From the NCBI RefSeq assembly GCF_058153355.1, contig NZ_CM177019.1: a stretch of DNA of 64,000 nt. One strand, written 5' to 3'. Position 1 is the stretch's first letter. Every line of letters starts with the position of its first letter. Positions 3,401-64,000 of the stretch are shown in pieces. A program made the position numbers and the translations under genes. The notes beneath the pieces are model-generated. The model ran no database searches. It was not told where the DNA came from and was given only the letters and a program-made list of their open reading frames with translations.

Positions 3401-6400
3401 CACTATTACACCATTGCCCTGGATAACGGCGCACAGGCTATCGGCGGCGATACGCCGGTTTACGTCAGTTGCCTGACGACGGCGAACAAACCTGCCAGCA
3501 GCATTACGCTGGATGTGGTTGATAACGCACAGTGGGCTGCCGGAAATAACGCGGCGAAGCTGAAAAAAGGCGAAACGCTACGGGTTAAGGTAACGGTAAA
3601 AGATGCGCAGGGTAATCCGCTCACGGATATGCCATTTAAACTGAGTCGCGGAGACGGTTATACCCGCACGGGCGAAAAACATATTGCCGGTAGTGGCGAT
3701 GCGCTGGTGGCACCGGTGGTGATTAACAGTGGGCTGGCGGATGAAACGACGTTGAACGACACCGCGGGATTTTATACTGCCATGACCGGTAGCGACGGCA
3801 GCAAAATCCTCAATATTACCCGCCCGGATACTCACGGCACCAAAACGGCGCTGACGGCGACGTTGTATTCCGATGCAACAAAAAAAGACAGCCTGGATAC
3901 GATCTTTACTGTGGTCACCAGCCCGGATAGTAGCAAAGCGAAAATGTGGGGGCATATGCCGGAAACGGTGACGGCTGCGGACGGTACGGTATTTAAACGC
4001 CCGCTGTTGTTGAAGGAACTGGCCTATCAGACTGGGCGAACATCGACGTCTGAAGACAATGAAAACTGGGCGTTGTTTAACATTAATTATGCGAGTTCTT
4101 CCACGACGTATAGTGGCTGTGGAACCAACTATATTCCGACTCAAGCCGGTCTGACGTCACTGTTTGCTAATAATGCGGGCAACACCATGAAAACCGTGCA
4201 GGGCTGGCCGGTGGCAACACGCTATTTGTCCAACACGTCCGACAACGGCAGCATGGAGCAGCGTAACTACAAGGCGGTAGATCTCAGCAATGGCACGAGT
4301 GCGGCAGTGTCATCAACGGCGCTGCAACTGCTGACCTGCCAGACCACGCCGGTAACCACGGTGGGCCAAATTCTGCTGGAAGCGGCAGATCCGGCGACGC
4401 TGGATACCACCTATAACGTGGTAAAAGCGAAAAAAGGCGAAGAATCCGTGGTGCGCGTCACCACCAAAGATACGCAAGGCAACCTGGTGGGCAATACGGC
4501 ATTTATCCTGACGCGTGCCAACAGCGTGAGTCGGGCTAACGCATCAGCAACCGCGAGCGTGGGCGCGCTGACGGTGACGGATGCTTGGGGAAATACGCGA
4601 AATAATTTCCAGTCGACGAGTGAAACGATTTACGGCGTGACTGGTGCAGACGGGTCAACGACATTTACCCTGAAACAGGATAACAGTACCGGGTTAAGAA
4701 CCGATCTCACGGCAAAACTGGATACGTCCAGCAGCGTCAAGGCGACGCTACCGGTGGTCTTTACTGTCGTGACCAGCCCGGATTCGCCAAAAGCGAATTT
4801 TTGGGGACATATGGCCGAAACGGTGATGGCCTCCGACGGTACAATCTATAAACGACCACTGTTGTTGAAAGAGCTGAGTAACACCAGTGGTCGAAATTCT
4901 ACGGCTGAAAACGGTGAAGATTGGGCAAGATTCACCTGGACTCAGTCGGCTGACACCAGCATGAATGGGTGTGGTACAGATTATATGCCGACGCTGGATG
5001 GACTGAAGTCTTTGTATGACGCCAATAGCGGTAATGTGATGAGTACGGTGCAGGGATGGCCGGTAAAAACGACCTATCTCACCAATACCCCGAGTGATAC
5101 GCAAACAGGGAGCCGTTACTACAATGTGGTGCAACTGAATACTGGTGCAGTCTCACAAATCTCGACGAACACAGTCGTGCTACAAACCTGCCGCACAACG
5201 CCGTTGACGGCTGCTAGCCAGATTACGCTGGAGGCCTCAGACCCCGCGCAATTTGTCAGCATTGACAGTACGCTTAGCGCGATCAAAGTGCAGAAAGGCG
5301 ATAGCGTGTCGATCCGCATTTCGACTAAAGATGCACAGGGGAATTTAGTCGGCAATACGCCGTTTGCCCTGAAACACGCTAACCCGGTCAATCGCCAAAA
5401 TGTGGCGTCAACATCGCAGAAAGTGTCGGTCACGACTGCGTCGGGTACGACGGTGGATACCACTGCATCGACCATTCTGTATGGCGTGACCGGGCCAGAC
5501 GGAACCACCACGATGACACTCCGACAGGATGCGTCTACTGGACTCAAAACCGACTTTTATGCTCTGTTGAACGATACCGGCGTGTCGTCGAACACCTTGC
5601 CAGTGATCTTCACCGTCGTCACCAGCCCGGATACACCGCTGGCGGCCAACTGGGGGCATATGGCAGAAACCTTTACCAGCAGCAAGGGAGTCACCTTCAA
5701 ACGGCCTTTCCTCAAAGCTGAACTTTCTGGTGGTACGGCGGTAACGACCAATAATGAAGTCTGGTCGCGCCTGACAGCAACGGAGAAAACGGATGCCAGC
5801 AAGGCTGGGTGTGATGAGAGTTATCAACCGCTGATGACTGACATGCAGGGGTTGTATGCGGATTACCCTAACAACCAGTTGGGCACGGTGCTCGGCTTGC
5901 CGACTTCCGCCGGGTATATGTGGGCCTACGACATGATGACGGTTTCTGGCAGCAGCTGGAGCAACCAGGCATATTCGCTCGTTAATGGTCAGACAGTTCA
6001 GGCATCGTCCAGTTATACGGCGGTAGTGATGTGCCTGGTGGAACCGCATACCGTTCCGGCGATGATAGAGATCACTTCAACAGCACAGGATGCGGCAAAA
6101 ACGGTCAGCAATGGTGGTCGACCGAGCGCCGTAGCGAAGAAAGGTGAGACGATTCCGCTGACGGTGACCGTACGTGATAGCACCGGGAATCCGGTACCCT
6201 ACGCCGACTTTACCCTCACGCGTGGAACGACGCTGGATCGCTCGAAAGCAACCGTTAACTCGAGTGCGGACGATCTTACCGTGAAGTCATTGATACCCGC
6301 GAACAGTGACGCTGGGCTGACGGCAAATGGGGCAAAAGTGCTCAGAACAACGGGCAGTGATGGCACAGCCACCTTTGAAGTGAGCCAGAATGCCACGACA

Positions 6401-8590
6401 GGACTGGCGACCCCCATAACCGTCACGCTGGCGCGTGATGTAACCAAAACCGCCACGCTGGATGTTATCTACACGGTGATAACCAGCCCGGACTCACCGA
6501 GCGCGAAATTCTGGGGGCACATGCCGGACACCTTTACCAGTTCGGCAGGCGTCACCTTCAGACGACCGCTGCTGAAAGCCGAAGCGACTTCAGGGTCATC
6601 GATTAGCACTAACGGCAATGGTGAAGTGTGGTCGTATATGAGCAACGTTCAAAATTTAACATCGACAGATTGTCCGCTGGAGAATCAACCGCGCAGTAAT
6701 GAATTGTTGGATTTGTATAATGATCATCCCAACGGCGCGATAATGACTGACCTGGGGCTGCCGATATATGCAGGCAAGTGGTGGGCTTATGATATGGTCA
6801 TGCCGGATTTATATACGTGGCAGTATCAGACGGTCAGCCTGAGCGCAGGAGATATCGCGAAGAGCTCGGCAAGCAACGCGCTGATGCTTTGCCTGACGAA
6901 GCCGCATCCGGCAGGCGTCAGCGTAATGTTGACGTCATCCGCAATGGATAACGCCAGAACCCTCAGTAATGGCGGGCGACCCAGCGCGTCAGTGAAAAAA
7001 GGTAACCCACTGCCAATTGTGGTGACGGTCAAAGATCGTGATGGCAACCCGCTGGCGGGAGAGGCCGTGACGCTCAGGCGTGGTTCAGCGATGAGTCGTT
7101 CAGGAGCAGGAGTGGGCACGCCGGCAAATGCAATGACGTTGACAGAATTGACACCTGTGTCGGCGGAGTTTTCTCTGGCCGCACACGATACGCAATGGCA
7201 AGGTTTCACCGGCAGTGATGGTACGGCCACTTTCAATGTTGAACAGCCTGAGACCATCGGCCTGGCCATTTCGTTCACCGCTATACTGGCGCGAGATGTA
7301 GCAACTACCAGCGTCCTTGATGCGATCTTTACCGTCGTTACCAGCCCGGATTCCGCAATGGCGACCTACTGGGGCCATATGCCGGATACGGTAACGGCGG
7401 AAAACGGCGTGGTCTTTGAACGGCCTAAATTGTTGAAAGAGCTGCCGTCGAGCGCCGGAGTCAGTCAGGTGACGGATAACAATGAAGTGTGGCCGTTGTT
7501 TAAGGCAACGCAAAGGGAAGATAGCAGCCTCAGTCCTTGTGAAGCGGCACGTCGGCCATTGAGCGATGATTTATTATCGCTCTACGCGCGCTATCCGGGG
7601 AACACGCTGACGACTCAAATCGGCTGGTCTACGAAGTATGCATGGTGGGCACTGGATAACAAGCAGGGGAATGCCCTGGTTGTCAGTCTGAATAATGGTT
7701 TTGAGTCGTCGACGGCGAGTACGGGGTATCAGGGATGTCTGGTCAATCCCCGCGCGACCGTCTCCAGCGTCACGCTGACATCGACGGCGCTGGATGCCAC
7801 TACGCAGGCAGCGAAGGTAAAAAAAGGTGAAGCCGTGCCCCTCGTTGTTACCGTAAAAGACAACGCCGGGAAGCCGGTACCGAATGTCGCTTTCACCTTA
7901 AAACGTGGTGATGCCATGCCACGTAACAGCGGGGCGACGTTGTACGGTGATGTTGCGGCGATGGATGATATGACGGTACAACCTGCCAGCGGGACGGTGG
8001 TAACGCTGGCTGACAGTGGGAATACGGTCGACGGAGTGACTGGGGCGGACGGTACGGCAAGTTTTACCGTTCGTCAGGATAATACGCCAGGATATAAAAC
8101 GCCGTTGACGGTGACGCTGACGGATAACGCCACAATAACGGCGATGCTGGATACGATTTTCACCGTCGTTACCAGTCCAAATGTACCCACAGCCCATTTT
8201 TGGGGACATATGTCGGATACCACTGTGGTAAACGGTAAAACGCTACATCGTCCACAGTTGGAATCAGAACTGCCATCGGCAGCCATCATGGTGGCAACAC
8301 CGAACGTCAATAATGAGACGTGGGCACTGGCGCATACTGTTGACTCGCAAAAATGGGATATTTCGCAGCAGTGCGGCCTCCTTGATTTTGCACCGAATTA
8401 TGCGGATTTAGAGGCTCTGCACACTAACTTCAGTACTCTCGGATGGCCGTCAATGCCTAATACCCCCTATCTATCTAAAGACAGAGAGCGGTCAGGTAAG
8501 TATTACTGCGGTATGATTGAAGAGACAGGTTCTCAATCTTGCAGTATTGAGCCTACCAGCACGCCGGGATTTGCTACTTGTGTCAGGTAA
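500..8590 (+). CDS. Giant secreted repeat protein, 2696 aa, RatA/RatB-like Ig-domain repeat protein
   Basis: Single uninterrupted ORF. GGAG at 486-489 precedes the ATG at 500. N-terminus has a signal-peptide-like stretch ([17 protein letters not shown]). Nine repeats each carry the motif [13 protein letters not shown]. Confidence 0.8.
1100..8400 (+). repeat. Nine tandem, divergent ~800-860-bp coding repeats inside the giant ORF
   Basis: The motif accagcccggac (TSPD) recurs near 1463, 2267, 3071, 3917, 4772, 5621, 6482, 7340 and 8171. Each is preceded by a KKGE..V.VT.KD..GN block and followed by a NE.W..CG..GWP..YW block. Confidence 0.8.
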
Positions 8591-8628
8591 AAAAAACAGA
8601 GCCAGCACGACGATGCTGGCGCGTTTTA
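8591..8628. terminator. Bidirectional intrinsic terminator between the convergent giant ORF and xseA
   Basis: Stem gccagc/gctggc (8601-8620) has an A-run on one side (8589-8597) and gcgtttt on the other. Confidence 0.6.
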
Positions 8629-8634
8629 TCTGAT

Positions 8635-10041
<1,407 letters not shown>

Positions 10042-46487: not shown

Positions 46488-46525
46488 CGGCAGAAAAATG
46501 CGATTTTAGCGGTAATTCGCACGAA

Positions 46526-46570
46526 ATTTGTTTGTCGGACGCAGGTCGGATAAGGCGTTCACGCCGCATT
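46526..46570. repeat. REP-like palindromic unit
   Basis: gtcggataaggcgttcacgccgcattcgac resembles the REP consensus (GCCGGATGCGGCGTGAACGCCTTATCCGGC) in inverse orientation, with mismatches. Confidence 0.45.
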
Positions 46571-46639
46571 CGACAAACATCTGGCACATCAGACAGCAAA
46601 AGATTTTAAAACGTTAATTCACACCCAGGAGTGATAAAG

Positions 46640-47353
46640 ATGCAAAAGCAAGCTGAGTTGTATCGTGGTAAAGCGAAAACCGTATACAGCACGGAAAACC
46701 CGGACCTGTTGGTGCTCGAATTCCGCAATGATACGTCAGCAGGGGATGGCGCGCGCATTGAGCAGTTTGATCGCAAAGGTATGGTGAACAACAAGTTCAA
46801 CTACTTCATTATGAGCAAACTGGCTGAAGCGGGTATCCCGACTCAAATGGAGCGTCTGCTCTCCGATACCGAGTGTCTGGTGAAAAAGCTGGATATGGTG
46901 CCGGTTGAGTGTGTCGTGCGTAACCGTGCTGCTGGCTCTCTGGTGAAACGTCTTGGAATCGAAGAAGGTATTGAGCTGAACCCGCCGCTGTTCGATCTGT
47001 TCCTGAAAAACGACGCCATGCACGATCCGATGGTCAACGAATCTTACTGCGAAACCTTTGGCTGGGTAAGTAAAGAGAACCTGGCGCGTATGAAAGAGCT
47101 GACCTACAAAGCGAACGACGTGCTGAAAAAACTGTTCGATGATGCTGGTCTGATTCTGGTCGACTTCAAGCTGGAGTTTGGCCTGTACAAAGGCGAAGTG
47201 GTTCTGGGCGATGAGTTCTCCCCGGACGGCAGCCGCCTGTGGGACAAAGAAACGCTGGAGAAAATGGATAAAGACCGTTTCCGCCAGAGCCTCGGTGGCC
47301 TGATCGAAGCCTATGAAGCCGTTGCCCGCCGCCTGGGTGTACAGCTGGACTGA
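46640..47353 (+). CDS. purC: SAICAR synthetase
   Basis: Start placed at [28 protein letters not shown], giving 237 aa. Confidence 0.95.
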
Positions 47354-47520
47354 TTTTTCTATTCATCATCTTGCCGTGCTGCTGGCACGGCAAGACAACC
47401 GCTCTCATAAGATGTGCATTGAACGCTCATTCCTCCGCCATTTCATCCCGCTTTCCTGTGGTAATCTTCCTCTGAACCACCTACGATCATTTCTATAATG
47501 AATATATTGTTGAGGTATCT

Positions 47521-48384
47521 ATGCGTTGGCAAGGGCGACGTGAAAGTGACAATGTTGAAGACAGGCGCAATAGCTCCGGTGGTCCGTCAATGGGCGGTCC
47601 CGGTTTCCGTCTGCCAAGCGGTAAAGGCGGGCTGATTTTACTGATAGTCGTGCTGGTTGCAGGCTACTATGGCGTTGATTTAACCGGATTGATGACCGGA
47701 CAGCCGGTTTCCCAACAACAATCAACGCGGTCAATTAGCCCTAATGAAGACGAAGCCGCAAAATTCACCTCGGTGATTCTGGCAACCACCGAAGACACCT
47801 GGGGACAGCAGTTCGAGAAGATGGGTAAGACCTATCAGCAACCGAAGCTGGTCATGTACCGTGGAATGACGCGCACCGGCTGCGGGGCGGGCCAGTCCAT
47901 TATGGGACCGTTCTATTGCCCGGCGGATGGCACGGTTTATATCGATCTCTCCTTCTATGATGACATGAAAGACAAACTTGGCGCGGATGGCGATTTTGCC
48001 CAGGGGTACGTTATCGCCCATGAAGTCGGTCATCATGTGCAGAAACTGTTAGGCATCGAGCCGAAAGTTCGTCAACTGCAACAAAACGCGACGCAGGCGG
48101 AAGTAAACCGCTTATCTGTGCGTATGGAACTCCAGGCCGACTGTTTTGCCGGTGTCTGGGGGCATAGCATGCAGCAGCAAGGCGTTCTGGAAACCGGCGA
48201 TCTGGAAGAAGCGCTGAACGCGGCGCAGGCCATCGGCGATGACCGTTTACAGCAGCAAAGTCAGGGGCGAGTCGTACCAGACAGTTTCACTCATGGCACT
48301 TCTCAGCAACGCTACAGCTGGTTTAAACGTGGTTTCGACAGCGGCGATCCGGCACAATGCAATACTTTTGGTAAAAGCATTTAA
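47521..48384 (+). CDS. ypfJ: Predicted zinc metallopeptidase YpfJ
   Basis: 287-aa ORF with an N-terminal TM segment and HExxH ([10 protein letters not shown]). Confidence 0.85.
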
Positions 48385-48398
48385 CTTTCGGGGCAGGG

Positions 48399-50414
48399 AT
48401 GGCTGAACTGACTGCGCTTCACCCATTAACAGCGCAAATGAAACGTGAAGGGATCCGCCGCTTGCTGGTGTTGAGCGGGGAAGAACGTTGGTGCTTTAAC
48501 CTTGCGCTTAAGTTGAGTGATGCCTTACCTGGCGACTGGTTGTGGGTTTCGCCGCAGCCAGTCGCTGAAAACTACTGTACTCCCTCGACGCTACAAACTT
48601 TACTTGGACGCGAGTTCCGGCATGCGGTATTCGACGCCCGCCAGGGCTTTGATGCCGCTGCCTTTGCGGCACTTAGCGGAACGTTGAAAGCGGGAAGCTG
48701 GCTGGTGTTGTTACTCCCTGTATGGGAAGAGTGGGAGAACCAACCTGATGCCGACTCGCTGCGCTGGAGTGATTGCCCTGACCCTATTGCGACGCCGCAT
48801 TTTATCCGGCACCTCAAACGCGTACTTACGGCGGATCACGACGCTATCCTCTGGCGGCAAAACCAGCCGTTCACGTTGACGCATTTTATTCCCCGTACTG
48901 ACTGGCAACCCGCGACTGGCGCACCACAACCAGAACAACAGCAACTCTTACAGCAGCTACTCACCATGCCGCCGGGCGTGTCAGCGGTAACTGCTGCGCG
49001 TGGGCGCGGTAAGTCGGCGCTGGCAGGGCAACTCATTTCTCGTATTGCGGGTAGTGCGATTGTCACCGCGCCTGCAAAAGCGGCAACGGATGTACTGGCA
49101 CAATTTGCGGGCGAAAAGTTTCGCTTTATTGCGCCGGATGCGTTGTTAGCCAGCAATGAGCAAGCCGACTGGCTGGTGGTTGACGAAGCCGCGGCCATAC
49201 CTGCGCCGTTGTTGCATCAACTGGTATCGCGTTTTCCTCGAACGTTGTTAACCACTACGGTGCAGGGCTACGAAGGTACCGGACGTGGTTTTTTGCTGAA
49301 ATTTTGTGCGCGTTTCCCGCATTTACACCGTTTCGAATTGCAACAGCCGATCCGCTGGGCGCAGGGATGCCCGCTGGAAAAAGTGGTCAGCGAGGCACTG
49401 GTTTTTGACGATGAAAACTTCACTCACGAACCACAAGGTGACATCGTCATTTCCGCTTTTGAACAGACCTTATGGCGAAGCGATCCGGATACACCGTTAA
49501 AGGTATATCAGCTATTGTCTGGCGCGCACTACCGGACCTCGCCGCTGGATTTACGCCGCATGATGGATGTACCTGGGCAACATTTTTTCCAGGCGGCTTG
49601 TGAAAACGAGATCGCCGGGGCGCTGTGGCTGGTCGAGGAGGGCGGATTATCTCAAGAACTCAGCCAGGCGGTATGGGCAGGTTTTCGTCGCCCGCGGGGT
49701 AATCTGGTAGCCCAGTCGCTGGCGGCGCACGGCAGCAATCCACTGGCAGCGACATTGCGCGGACGGCGGGTCAGCAGGATAGCAGTTCATCCAGCTCGTC
49801 AGCGTGAAGGCATTGGGCAACAGCTTATTGCCCGTGCTTTAAACTATACGCATGACCTCGACTATCTTTCGGTGAGTTTTGGCTACACCGCGGAGTTATG
49901 GCGTTTCTGGCAACGCTGCGGTTTTGTGCTGGTGCGAATGGGTAATCATCGTGAAGCCAGCAGCGGTTGCTATACGGCGATGGCACTGTTACCGATGAGT
50001 GATGAGGGTAAACAGCTGGCTGAACGTGAGCATTACCGTTTACGTCGCGATGTGCATGCTCTCACGCAGTGGAATGGCGAAACGCTCCCCGTCGATCCAC
50101 GAAATGATGCCGTCCTTTCTGAGGACGACTGGCTTGAACTGGCCGGTTTTGCTTTCGCTCATCGTCCGCTATTAACGTCGTTAGGTTGCTTAACGCGTCT
50201 GCTACAAACCAGTGAACTGGCATTACCGGCGCTGCGTGGTCGTTTACAGAAAAACGCCAGTGACGCGCAGTTATGTACCACACTTAAACTTTCAGGCCGC
50301 AAGATGTTACTGGCCCGTCAGCGAGAAGAGGCCGCGCAGGCGCTGTTCGCACTTGATAATGTTCGCACTGAGCGTCTGCGCGATCGCATAACGCAATGGC
50401 AATTTTTTCACTGA
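48399..50414 (+). CDS. tmcA: tRNA(Met) cytidine acetyltransferase TmcA
   Basis: 671-aa ORF with helicase-like Walker A (ARGRGKSA) and a C-terminal GNAT region. Confidence 0.9.
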   Translation: MAELTALHPLTAQMKREGIRRLLVLSGEERWCFNLALKLSDALPGDWLWVSPQPVAENYCTPSTLQTLLGREFRHAVFDARQGFDAAAFAALSGTLKAGSWLVLLLPVWEEWENQPDADSLRWSDCPDPIATPHFIRHLKRVLTADHDAILWRQNQPFTLTHFIPRTDWQPATGAPQPEQQQLLQQLLTMPPGVSAVTAARGRGKSALAGQLISRIAGSAIVTAPAKAATDVLAQFAGEKFRFIAPDALLASNEQADWLVVDEAAAIPAPLLHQLVSRFPRTLLTTTVQGYEGTGRGFLLKFCARFPHLHRFELQQPIRWAQGCPLEKVVSEALVFDDENFTHEPQGDIVISAFEQTLWRSDPDTPLKVYQLLSGAHYRTSPLDLRRMMDVPGQHFFQAACENEIAGALWLVEEGGLSQELSQAVWAGFRRPRGNLVAQSLAAHGSNPLAATLRGRRVSRIAVHPARQREGIGQQLIARALNYTHDLDYLSVSFGYTAELWRFWQRCGFVLVRMGNHREASSGCYTAMALLPMSDEGKQLAEREHYRLRRDVHALTQWNGETLPVDPRNDAVLSEDDWLELAGFAFAHRPLLTSLGCLTRLLQTSELALPALRGRLQKNASDAQLCTTLKLSGRKMLLARQREEAAQALFALDNVRTERLRDRITQWQFFH

Positions 50415-50463
50415 CTCCTTCAATTTTCTCCCATGGTCATTGTGAGTCAGCGGCGTAAAATTA

Positions 50464-51189
50464 ATGACATCAGTTAAGGAGTTCGCCATGAAACATGACC
50501 ATTTTGTTGTTCAAAGCCCGGATAAACCTGCACAACAGTTGTTACTGCTTTTCCACGGTGTCGGGGATAACCCGGTAGCGATGGGTGAGATCGGCAGCTG
50601 GTTTGCGCCGCTGTTTCCTGATGCACTGGTGGTGAGCGTCGGTGGCGCGGAGCCGAGCGGTAATCCGGCGGGGCGTCAGTGGTTTTCGGTGCAGGGTATT
50701 ACGGAAGATAATCGCTAGGCGCGTGTGGATGCCATCATGCCGACGTTTATTGAGACGGTGCGCTACTGGCAGAAACAGAGCGGAGTAGGGGCAAACGCCA
50801 CGGCGCTAATCGGTTTCTCACAAGGCGCGATTATGGCGCTGGAGAGCATTAAAGCCGAACCGGGTCTTGCTTCGCGCGTCATTGCCTTTAACGGACGTTA
50901 TGCCAGCTTGCCGGAAACCGCGTCTACAGCCACGACAATTCACTTGATTCATGGCGGTGAAGATCCGGTTATCGATCTGGCGCATGCGGTTGCGGCGCAG
51001 GAAGCGTTAATCAGTGCAGGTGGTGATGTGACGCTGGATATTGTGGAGGATTTAGGCCATGCAATCGACAATCGCAGTATGCAATTTGCCCTGGATCACT
51101 TGCGTTATACCATTCCGAAACATTATTTCGACGAAGCGCTAAGTGGTGGCAAACCTGGCGATGATGATGTAATTGAAATGATGCAATAA
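50464..51189 (+). pseudogene. ypfH: Esterase YpfH interrupted by an in-frame amber codon (TAG at 50716-50718)
   Basis: Track ORFs 50464-50718 and 50725-51189 are in the same frame and read straight through one TAG (..GITEDNR*ARVDAIMPTF..). The intact homolog as I recall it has Gln here. Confidence 0.7.
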
Positions 51190-51256
51190 TAGCCTGGTAG
51201 ATACTGTTATGGCCTGCAAGTTTTTTTCTACCCCGGTTTCCCAGATTGCAGGCATG

Positions 51257-52560
<1,304 letters not shown>

Positions 52561-52563
52561 AGC

Positions 52564-52764
52564 TTACTTCTTCGGTTGATCCTTTTTCGGCCAGTCATCG
52601 TCATCGTCCCACTTATCGTTGAAATCACGATGCGGGGGAAGCTCCGGTTTGTTGGCGAGAAATTTCTTATGGTCGACGCGCTTGAGATCTTTAATCACGT
52701 TCAGCAGGACGCCTACCAAAAAGACAATCACCAGAATCCACCAATATTTAGCCAGCCAGTCCAT
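52564..52764 (-). CDS. ypfN: Small membrane protein YpfN (UPF0370)
   Basis: Start placed at [24 protein letters not shown], giving 66 aa. Confidence 0.8.
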
Positions 52765-52791
52765 GCTTATTTCCTCTTGCAGAACCACTCA

Positions 52792-53919
52792 TCAGGCGAC
52801 GAGCTGTTCCATGATACGTTGATACATACGGGCAAGTAGCTGCAGGTCGGCAGCGTTCACACATTCATTAATTTTATGAATAGTGGCATTGACCGGCCCG
52901 AGTTCCACCACCTGCGCCCCCATGCGGGCAATAAAGCGCCCGTCAGACGTTCCGCCTGTGGTCAGTAGCTGCGGTTTAATTTCATTATAGTGCTCAACCG
53001 CGTTAACGACCGCATCCACCAGTTTGCCGCGCGCGGTCAAAAATGGCTGCCCGGAAAGCCACCAATCCACCGTATAACGCAGTTGATGTTTTTCAAGCAG
53101 GGCAAGCACCTGCGCTTTGATCATCTCATCCGTCAGTTCGGTGCTAAAGCGGAAGTTAAACTGCACAAACAGTTCACCCGGAATAACGTTGTTACTGCCC
53201 GTTCCCGCCTGAATATTGGCAATCTGCATACTGGTCGCCGGGAAGAATTCATTACCCTGATCCCACTCAATAGCCACTAATTCATTAAGGAAAGGTGCTG
53301 CGCGATGTACCGGGTTGTCAGCCAGATGCGGGTAGGCTACATGCCCCTGCACGCCATGAATGGTGAGGTTGCAGGTTAACGATCCGCGACGACCATTTTT
53401 CACCACGTCACCAACCACTTCGATGCTCGATGGTTCGCCGACCAGGCAGTAATCGAGACGCTCATTACGCGCCATTAACGCTTCGACGACTTTTACCGTA
53501 CCGTTGTGGGCACTGGCTTCTTCATCAGAAGTGATCAGAAATGCCAGTCGGCCTGTATGGTTGGGATGTTGCGCGACAAAACGTTCTGCTGCTACCACCA
53601 TCGCCGCCAGTGAGCCTTTCATATCTGCCGCACCACGCCCGAACAACATGCCGTCACGAATGGTTGGTTCAAACGGCGGATTAATCCAACGGTCGGCGTC
53701 GCCAGGCGGTACCACGTCGGTATGTCCGGCAAAGGCTAACGTTTCGCCCTGCCCACGCCACGCCCAAAAGTTTTGCGTATCGGCAAAGTCCATGCGTTCA
53801 ACGGTAAAACCGATCGCCTGCAGACGTTCGATCATGATTGCCTGACATCCCGCATCATCAGGGCTTAAGGATGGGCGGCGAATAAGCTGCTGGGTCAGCT
53901 CAATAACCGGGCACGACAT
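52792..53919 (-). CDS. dapE: Succinyl-diaminopimelate desuccinylase
   Basis: 375-aa ORF beginning [26 protein letters not shown]. Confidence 0.95.

Positions 53920-63852: not shown

Positions 63853-64000
<148 letters not shown>

Follow-up and report, generated by a model that had tools for sequence, protein, structure and literature searches.

Nonsense mutations of the lacI gene, collected by Coulondre and Miller in 1978, are said to include amber hotspots at Dcm sites. The ypfH gene examined here, which is non-essential in E. coli K-12, carries a change of the same kind: the inner C of CCAGG has become T, which converts CAG to TAG and leaves CTAGG behind. The CTAGG remnant is likewise the sequence context of a Vsr substrate, as at the Dcm amber hotspots. 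The locus differs from the lacI hotspots in that the ypfH mutation Q77* is a natural chromosomal allele of a wild strain, and not a selected laboratory mutant. Deamination of the Dcm-methylated C gives rise to T:G mismatches in CTWGG/CCWGG that are repaired by Vsr, and in strains without Vsr C>T changes at these sites are frequent (PMC2715241). In natural populations of E. coli and Salmonella the C>T rate at the inner C of CCWGG is about 8-fold that of other cytosines, according to the passage of PMC9520237 that cites Cherry 2018.

A second described system lies beside the gene. The insertion sequence IS621, whose recombinase belongs to the IS110 family and is guided by a bridge RNA, has as its natural target the sequence ATCAGGCCTAC with a CT core in REP elements (PMC11208160). 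Below we describe how ypfH and its neighboring IS621 copy compare with these systems, and we weigh whether the amber codon is real, how it may have arisen, and what it would mean for the YpfH protein.

Results

The ypfH gene

In the window, by which we mean the whole 64,000-nucleotide stretch of E. coli DNA that was analysed, ypfH encodes an Abhydrolase_2 esterase in a 233-codon frame (50488–51189, plus strand) that is broken at codon 77. Translation of 50488–51189 gave this one internal stop and no frameshifts, and the frame ended with TAA at 51187–51189. That is, two ORFs (50464 or 50488 to 50718, and 50725–51189) share one frame and are parted by the TAG at 50716–50718, just as a preliminary description of this DNA had proposed. 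The same description let the first ORF begin at 50464. Its frame was right but its start was not: RefSeq annotates the start of ypfH in three E. coli relatives at the position of the ATG at 50488, and the ATG at 50464 is merely the first one in the frame. A Shine-Dalgarno sequence read from the DNA, TAAGGAG (50475–50481, plus strand), lies 6 nt 5' of the ATG at 50488 and thus supports 50488 over 50464 as the ypfH start. A promoter and terminator scan of 50300–51300 found sites no more numerous than in shuffled sequence.

The preliminary description also regarded the remainder of the gene as a full-length esterase, and the protein comparison agreed. With Gln77 restored, YpfH matched Pfam PF02230 over residues 3–209 (model positions 1–217 of 217, E = 2e-59), and apart from Q77* it showed 100% amino-acid identity to WP_000679813.1 of the relatives. 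The full-length Pfam match, the GFSQG motif and the aligned Asp and His are features shared with the YpfH family and its solved homologs 5dwd and 4fhz. This allele type, with 233 codons and the ending ...MMQ, was rare (14 records at ≥99% identity). The locus order was purC-ypfJ-tmcA-ypfH followed by the convergent genes ypfN-dapE-yffB-acrD, which was the same in other E. coli; K-12 and its relatives have the same tmcA-ypfH locus, convergent with ypfN-dapE. Unlike YpfH of these relatives, the window's frame is broken at codon 77 and the protein could not be made. Our search of the literature on ypfH returned nothing concerning the Q77* allele.

The amber codon and its Dcm context

The preliminary description had suspected a CAG-to-TAG change at a Gln codon and had recommended an alignment with ypfH of other strains. 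When this alignment was run, strains 2017-02-2CC, 2020CK-00188 and C5 all carried CAG at codon 77, so that the suspected change was confirmed as a C>T transition at 50716, producing the amber codon at 50716–50718 (plus strand) in place of Gln77. In the relatives, codons 76 and 77 span CCAGG (CGC CAG GCG), and the mutated base is its inner C. The CTAGG at 50715–50719 (plus strand) is accordingly the remnant of a Dcm site where the relatives read CGCCAGGCG. Among the 14 ypfH codons that a transition can turn into a stop, none but codon 77 shares bases with a CCWGG site. We searched 5,404 complete RefSeq E. coli genomes with a 61-mer that had the T at 50716 in its middle; none of them matched it exactly, and the best matches all differed from it by one base.

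We propose that the inner C of the Dcm site C-5mC-A-G-G in codons 76–77 was replaced by T, which would turn Gln77 (CAG) into amber (TAG), and that the likeliest cause would be a spontaneous deamination of 5-methylcytosine that evaded very-short-patch (Vsr) repair. We infer methylation as the cause of this particular C>T change on the assumption that the site was methylated, dcm and vsr themselves lying outside the 64-kb window. Deamination is less than certain as the cause, however, given that ordinary transitions also happen and that in public data every other Gln or Trp codon tested in ypfH has likewise mutated to a stop.

Reality of the substitution

A sequencing error was one of the options raised in the preliminary description. 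The T at 50716 might be a miscall in an intact ypfH, produced for example by a methylation-induced nanopore consensus error at the Dcm motif. The change does fall exactly on the Dcm-methylated base; DNA modification is reported to cause nanopore read errors (PMC11610603); and none of the 5,404 complete RefSeq genomes has T at this position. The same paper, however, gives a base accuracy of ~99% in CCWGG with the standard model, and the sequence comparisons that follow told against a miscall.

First among these was an independent de Bruijn-graph contig from Logan (SRR28786219, 73 kb), which was identical to the window at 4737 of 4737 bases (46488–51224), the T at 50716 included. This contig ended 24 nt inside IS621, as would be expected where a k = 31 graph assembly meets repeated IS621 copies. 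The window's exact 150-aa downstream product was recorded once in the public protein collection, on this same contig. The SRR28786219 run may share its isolate with the window, so that its value lies in confirming the base call and does not extend to inheritance within a lineage.

We also screened the window for private changes by projecting the relatives R32_14_1F, 2017-02-2CC and 2020CK-00188 onto 62,268 of its bases. Of the 383 substitutions that proved private to the window, 259 were synonymous, 116 were non-synonymous and 8 lay between genes or in short ORFs; 50716 was the sole private nonsense change relative to the three relatives. There were no private frameshifts in the 62 kb outside one divergent stretch with balanced indels. 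The window retained 159 intact CCWGG sites, and private transitions were found at 5 of 288 Dcm-methylated positions, where all but the one at 50716 were synonymous, as real evolution predicts. This clean pattern of private changes indicates real divergence in a clean assembly and not a systematic motif error. Lastly, unrelated submitters have deposited many draft and metagenome assemblies that contain Q77*. We therefore consider a miscall very unlikely, and the sequencing-error option is contradicted by the contig with T and by the clean window.

The same screen bears on the mutational process. Window-private C>T changes were 3.7-fold enriched at Dcm cytosines relative to the remaining C/G positions (5/288 vs 147/31,745, Fisher P = 0.012). 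The four such transitions other than 50716 lie at 2980, 8713, 23165 and 59628 (CCAGG to CTAGG or CCAAG), and all are synonymous.

Recurrence of Q77* in other lineages

The exact 76-aa N-terminal product of Q77* was found on ~150 contigs from NCBI, ENA and Logan (a collection of 15 billion proteins), one of them a 5.2-Mb chromosome, and an S37N variant of this product was found on 30 further contigs. All 17 of the 17 Q77* loci examined had a true TAG at codon 77, and among the matches listed they represented at least 10–12 haplotypes; these haplotype counts are lower bounds, taken from the 24 longest contigs in each look-up. Over 2.8 kb of tmcA + ypfH the Q77* loci fell into 7–10 haplotype groups. 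The nearest CAG relatives of the TAG alleles were 0–5 nt away over these 2.8 kb (0 between loci L008 and L035, 3 between L011 and L026, and 5 between L004 and L024). The haplotypes with TAG are unrelated to one another and their nearest relatives have CAG, so the same C>T must have arisen independently many times, and we attribute this recurrence to the location of the mutated C in a Dcm site.

The window's own allele is one more such event. The other Q77* alleles of ypfH differed from it at 30–37 of 702 positions, compared with 3 for the nearest intact allele, and its haplotype around codon 77 was that of the intact alleles L001, L003 and L043. Recombination with another TAG lineage as the source of the TAG was considered and rejected, given that the window haplotype equals that of intact alleles and that the other TAG alleles differ at variable sites nearby. 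Since nothing else in the window's ypfH has changed, the Q77* event appears to be private and recent.

The preliminary description had treated a stop shared by orthologs in related strains, with a downstream start annotated there, as a sign against an inactivating mutation. Such orthologs literally exist, and a 149-aa ORF is called after the stop in many assemblies, but they do not refute inactivation because they lie on unrelated haplotypes with CAG relatives. The same stop in other strains can thus reflect recurrent mutation instead of conservation.

Stops at other ypfH codons

Residues 1–116 were invariant among the alleles, so exact truncated products could be searched for other codons that a transition turns into a stop. 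The product of Q77* occurred on 150 contigs (+30 with the S37N variant). The others occurred on 50 contigs for W38*, 25 for Q64*, 34 for W65*, 44 for Q69*, 91 for W94*, 31 for Q95*, 56 for Q97*, 34 for Q112*, 32 for Q171* and 10 for Q199*. The comparison is therefore 150+30 against 10–91 for the ten other truncations, in counts that mix clonality with contig-end fragments. The contig counts were confounded in that the gene was simply cut by a contig end in 4/10 cases of Q64* and Q97*, 6/10 of Q69*, 3/10 of Q95* and 1/3 of Q112*, and the W94* contigs were dominated by a single clone. For this reason counts of true stops and haplotypes were used in place of raw contig counts.

Blocks whose longest contig was ≥20 kb numbered 41 for Q77* and 6 for its S37N variant, against 2 for Q64*, 3 for Q69*, 5 for Q95*, 7 for Q97* and 25 for Q112*, the Q112* blocks being mostly contig-end fragments (20 of the 24 contigs read). 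Each of the five other Gln codons had 2–7 true stops, on 4, 4, 6, 5 and 2 haplotypes among the matches listed. The difference between at least 10–12 haplotypes for Q77* and 2–6 at the other Gln codons gave a binomial P of 0.005–0.025, in a sample that is biased. Like the Dcm amber hotspots, then, Q77* recurs independently and appears, again in biased samples, to be commoner than the other ypfH nonsense sites, and the size of its excess is in line with the ~8-fold population bias that the citing passage attributes to Cherry 2018. These numbers support, but do not prove, a methylation hotspot at codon 77, for the excess comes from biased sampling. The idea that recurrence is unique to Q77* was rejected: W94*, Q97*, Q69*, Q95* and Q64* were also found on several haplotypes, and only the magnitude differs. 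The second Dcm site of ypfH (nt 603–607), at which both transitions are synonymous, was set aside as an internal control for the hotspot, since the available sequences had been preselected for stops, some of them with indels or Ns.

Other broken forms of the gene were also seen. Of two frameshift products of ypfH, one of 34 aa (...AMGK) occurred on 529 contigs, including 5.6-Mb chromosomes, and one of 121 aa on 144; Shigella dysenteriae has annotated truncated forms as well. Natural strains lose the gene by many routes, as one would expect if it is dispensable and only weakly constrained. In one strain with Q77* and S37N (L049:2750-4674), the downstream ypfH remnant was shortened to 123 aa and was followed by a gene for a 479-aa phage-type integrase (PF00589) and by more genes, which suggests that ypfH has received an integrative element at its 3' end.

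Positive selection for the loss of YpfH in some niches, beyond a mutational hotspot, could instead explain why Q77* and the other truncations recur. There are many independent inactivating alleles of ypfH, each transition-to-stop site tested is mutated, the 34-aa and 121-aa frameshift products are abundant, and certain Q77* haplotypes were sampled repeatedly. We nevertheless regard such selection as unlikely. The collection is enormous, so all neutral loss-of-function alleles of a dispensable gene are expected in it; Q77* is in no complete RefSeq genome and thus remains at low frequency; methylation alone predicts an excess of the size seen at codon 77 (~8-fold, in the citing passage); and loss of YpfH has no known phenotype.

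Consequence for the protein

The N-terminal remnant ORF (50488–50718, plus strand) encodes 76 aa (MKHDHF...EDNR), with an HG motif and no catalytic residue. The C-terminal remnant ORF (50725–51189, plus strand) could be read from GTG 50725 as 154 aa or from ATG 50737 as 150 aa. By alignment to PDB 4fhz and 5dwd, the predicted catalytic triad consists of Ser111 (50818–50820), Asp159 (50962–50964) and His191 (51058–51060), all on the plus strand: Ser111 is held in the nucleophile elbow GFSQG (GxSxG), and Asp159 and His191 align with the D and H of 4fhz and 5dwd. Because all three residues lie 3' of the stop, ypfH is predicted to be inactivated. Translation would halt after 76 residues, ahead of Ser111, Asp159 and His191, and no active esterase would be made, so that a loss of YpfH activity is what the coding sequence leads us to infer. 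Among the options of the preliminary description, the inactivated pseudogene is the one that we favor, with a single TAG upstream of the whole triad and its T confirmed in an independent contig. Since ypfN is convergent with ypfH, a polar effect is not expected.

Two readings would rescue a product from the broken gene. In one, either amber suppression by a supE-like allele of glnV/glnX in another part of the genome or appreciable natural UAG read-through still yields full-length YpfH. The remaining frame shows no damage and matches the relatives' intact protein exactly, and the residue that a supE-type suppressor would insert is Gln, as in the original. Natural isolates seldom carry suppressor alleles, however, and basal read-through at UAG codons is ~1% or less. 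ARAGORN found no tRNA genes in the 64-kb window, which therefore offers no support for a suppressor, and an undamaged downstream frame is equally expected of a very recent mutation. The allele is known only from the window and one matching contig (P0016), and the stop is not conserved by descent as it should be in a suppressed or read-through gene: it occurs in 0 of the 5,404 complete genomes, and the closest alleles read CAG. We judge continued expression of the full-length protein to be extremely unlikely.

In the other reading, translation re-initiates at GTG 50725 or ATG 50737, and fragments of 76 aa and 150–154 aa together form an active esterase. These restart codons lie 6 and 18 nt past the stop, and gene callers find a downstream ORF of 149 or 150 aa in every Q77* assembly. 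Neither codon has a good ribosome-binding site, however, and inspection of the sequence before GTG 50725 and ATG 50737 revealed none that was convincing. A restart at either would lose the first 79–83 residues of a single-domain fold, and the cut would fall inside that fold (the one Abhydrolase_2 domain, residues 3–209). The stop is also not inherited as a functional split gene would be, with 0/5,404 complete genomes carrying it and a sporadic occurrence on unrelated haplotypes. We give almost no credence to a functional split gene, and return to the inactivated gene in the Discussion.

Neighboring elements

IS621 (IS110 family) occupies 51201–52478 on the minus strand, with its transposase CDS at 52286–51306, and is absent from the relatives. 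It begins 11 bp beyond the ypfH TAA and leaves the coding sequence untouched, so the preliminary description was correct in placing the element 11 bp past the stop (51201 vs 51187–51189) and in holding that it does not disrupt ypfH. Compared with the IS621 transposase annotated in strain C5, the 326-aa transposase was identical at 323 of 327 positions, stop counted. The IS621 core AG (CT on the minus strand) was present on both sides, at 51199–51200 and 52479–52480, such that the junctions overlap by 2 bp. The reconstructed empty site reads ATCAGGCCTAC on the minus strand, inside a REP element and with the CT core at both junctions. The REP/BIME element hosting IS621 (52480–52556, no strand assigned) matched Rfam naRNA4 (RF02564) at 89 bits on the minus strand (E = 6e-16) and at 56 bits on the plus strand, and this REP-derived naRNA4 was the sole match in an Rfam scan of 50000–53000.

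The window copy shares with described IS621 insertions in REP elements an IS621-type transposase, a REP sequence split between ATCAGGC and CTAC, and the CT core on both sides, and it matches exactly the natural target of the published insertions. The IS621 insertion is a separate, normal event, unrelated to the ypfH stop.

A second IS621 copy starts within the window (63853–64000; ...GACGCGGTAG joined at the insertion boundary to ATACTGTTATGGCCTG...) and runs past the window end. Its end and orientation are those of the copy at 51201, and it lies in another REP downstream of ypfG. The two direct copies, ~12.6 kb apart, flank ypfN-dapE-yffB-acrD-narQ-aegA-nudK-ypfG and so provide a possible substrate for deletion or duplication.

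Some further differences were observed on the other side of ypfH. The purC-ypfJ interval of loci L004, L005, L006, L008, L009 and L011 (positions 223–887) contained a cassette of two genes, resembling a VapBC-type toxin-antitoxin pair, whose products are a 75/88-aa protein and a PIN-domain protein of 132 aa. The cassette was absent in L007, L010, L012 and L013, and L013 was identical to the window. Toward the start of the window, ~300 bases at 8377–8682, in the 3' end of a giant adhesin gene before xseA, were too divergent from R32_14_1F for megablast, and small balanced indels were present at 8167–8342, flanking this divergent adhesin stretch.

Discussion

The analysis showed the substitution to be real, to lie in a Dcm context and to recur in other lineages, and it placed the catalytic residues relative to the stop. 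We hold it to be highly probable that this strain carries ypfH as a recent, strain-private Q77* pseudogene that arose by a C>T change at a Dcm site, probably through deamination of 5-methylcytosine, and that the adjoining IS621 is a separate matter. The case is an ordinary nonsense pseudogene, another instance of a well-known kind, and it involves no new mechanism.

For annotation, ypfH should here be labeled as one pseudogene (Q77*) with its start at 50488; two short genes would be the wrong label. A Dcm motif is an expected spot for nanopore artefacts, and the checks used for this one can be reused elsewhere, namely the comparison with an independent assembly, the condition of the remaining Dcm sites, and the share of synonymous changes among the private ones.

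A bolder idea is that codon 77 acts across the population as a methylation-driven point at which ypfH is switched off: Dcm methylation would make this CAG the favorite path to repeated YpfH loss in E. coli lineages, a loss favored in some niches. We think this distinctly unlikely; if true, codon 77 would be a natural case of epigenetically biased adaptive gene loss. For the ordinary pseudogene that we favor, the meaning is simpler. A CAG embedded in CCAGG is the easiest route to an amber codon in Dcm-positive enterobacteria, and ypfH provides a clean natural example of this textbook rule.
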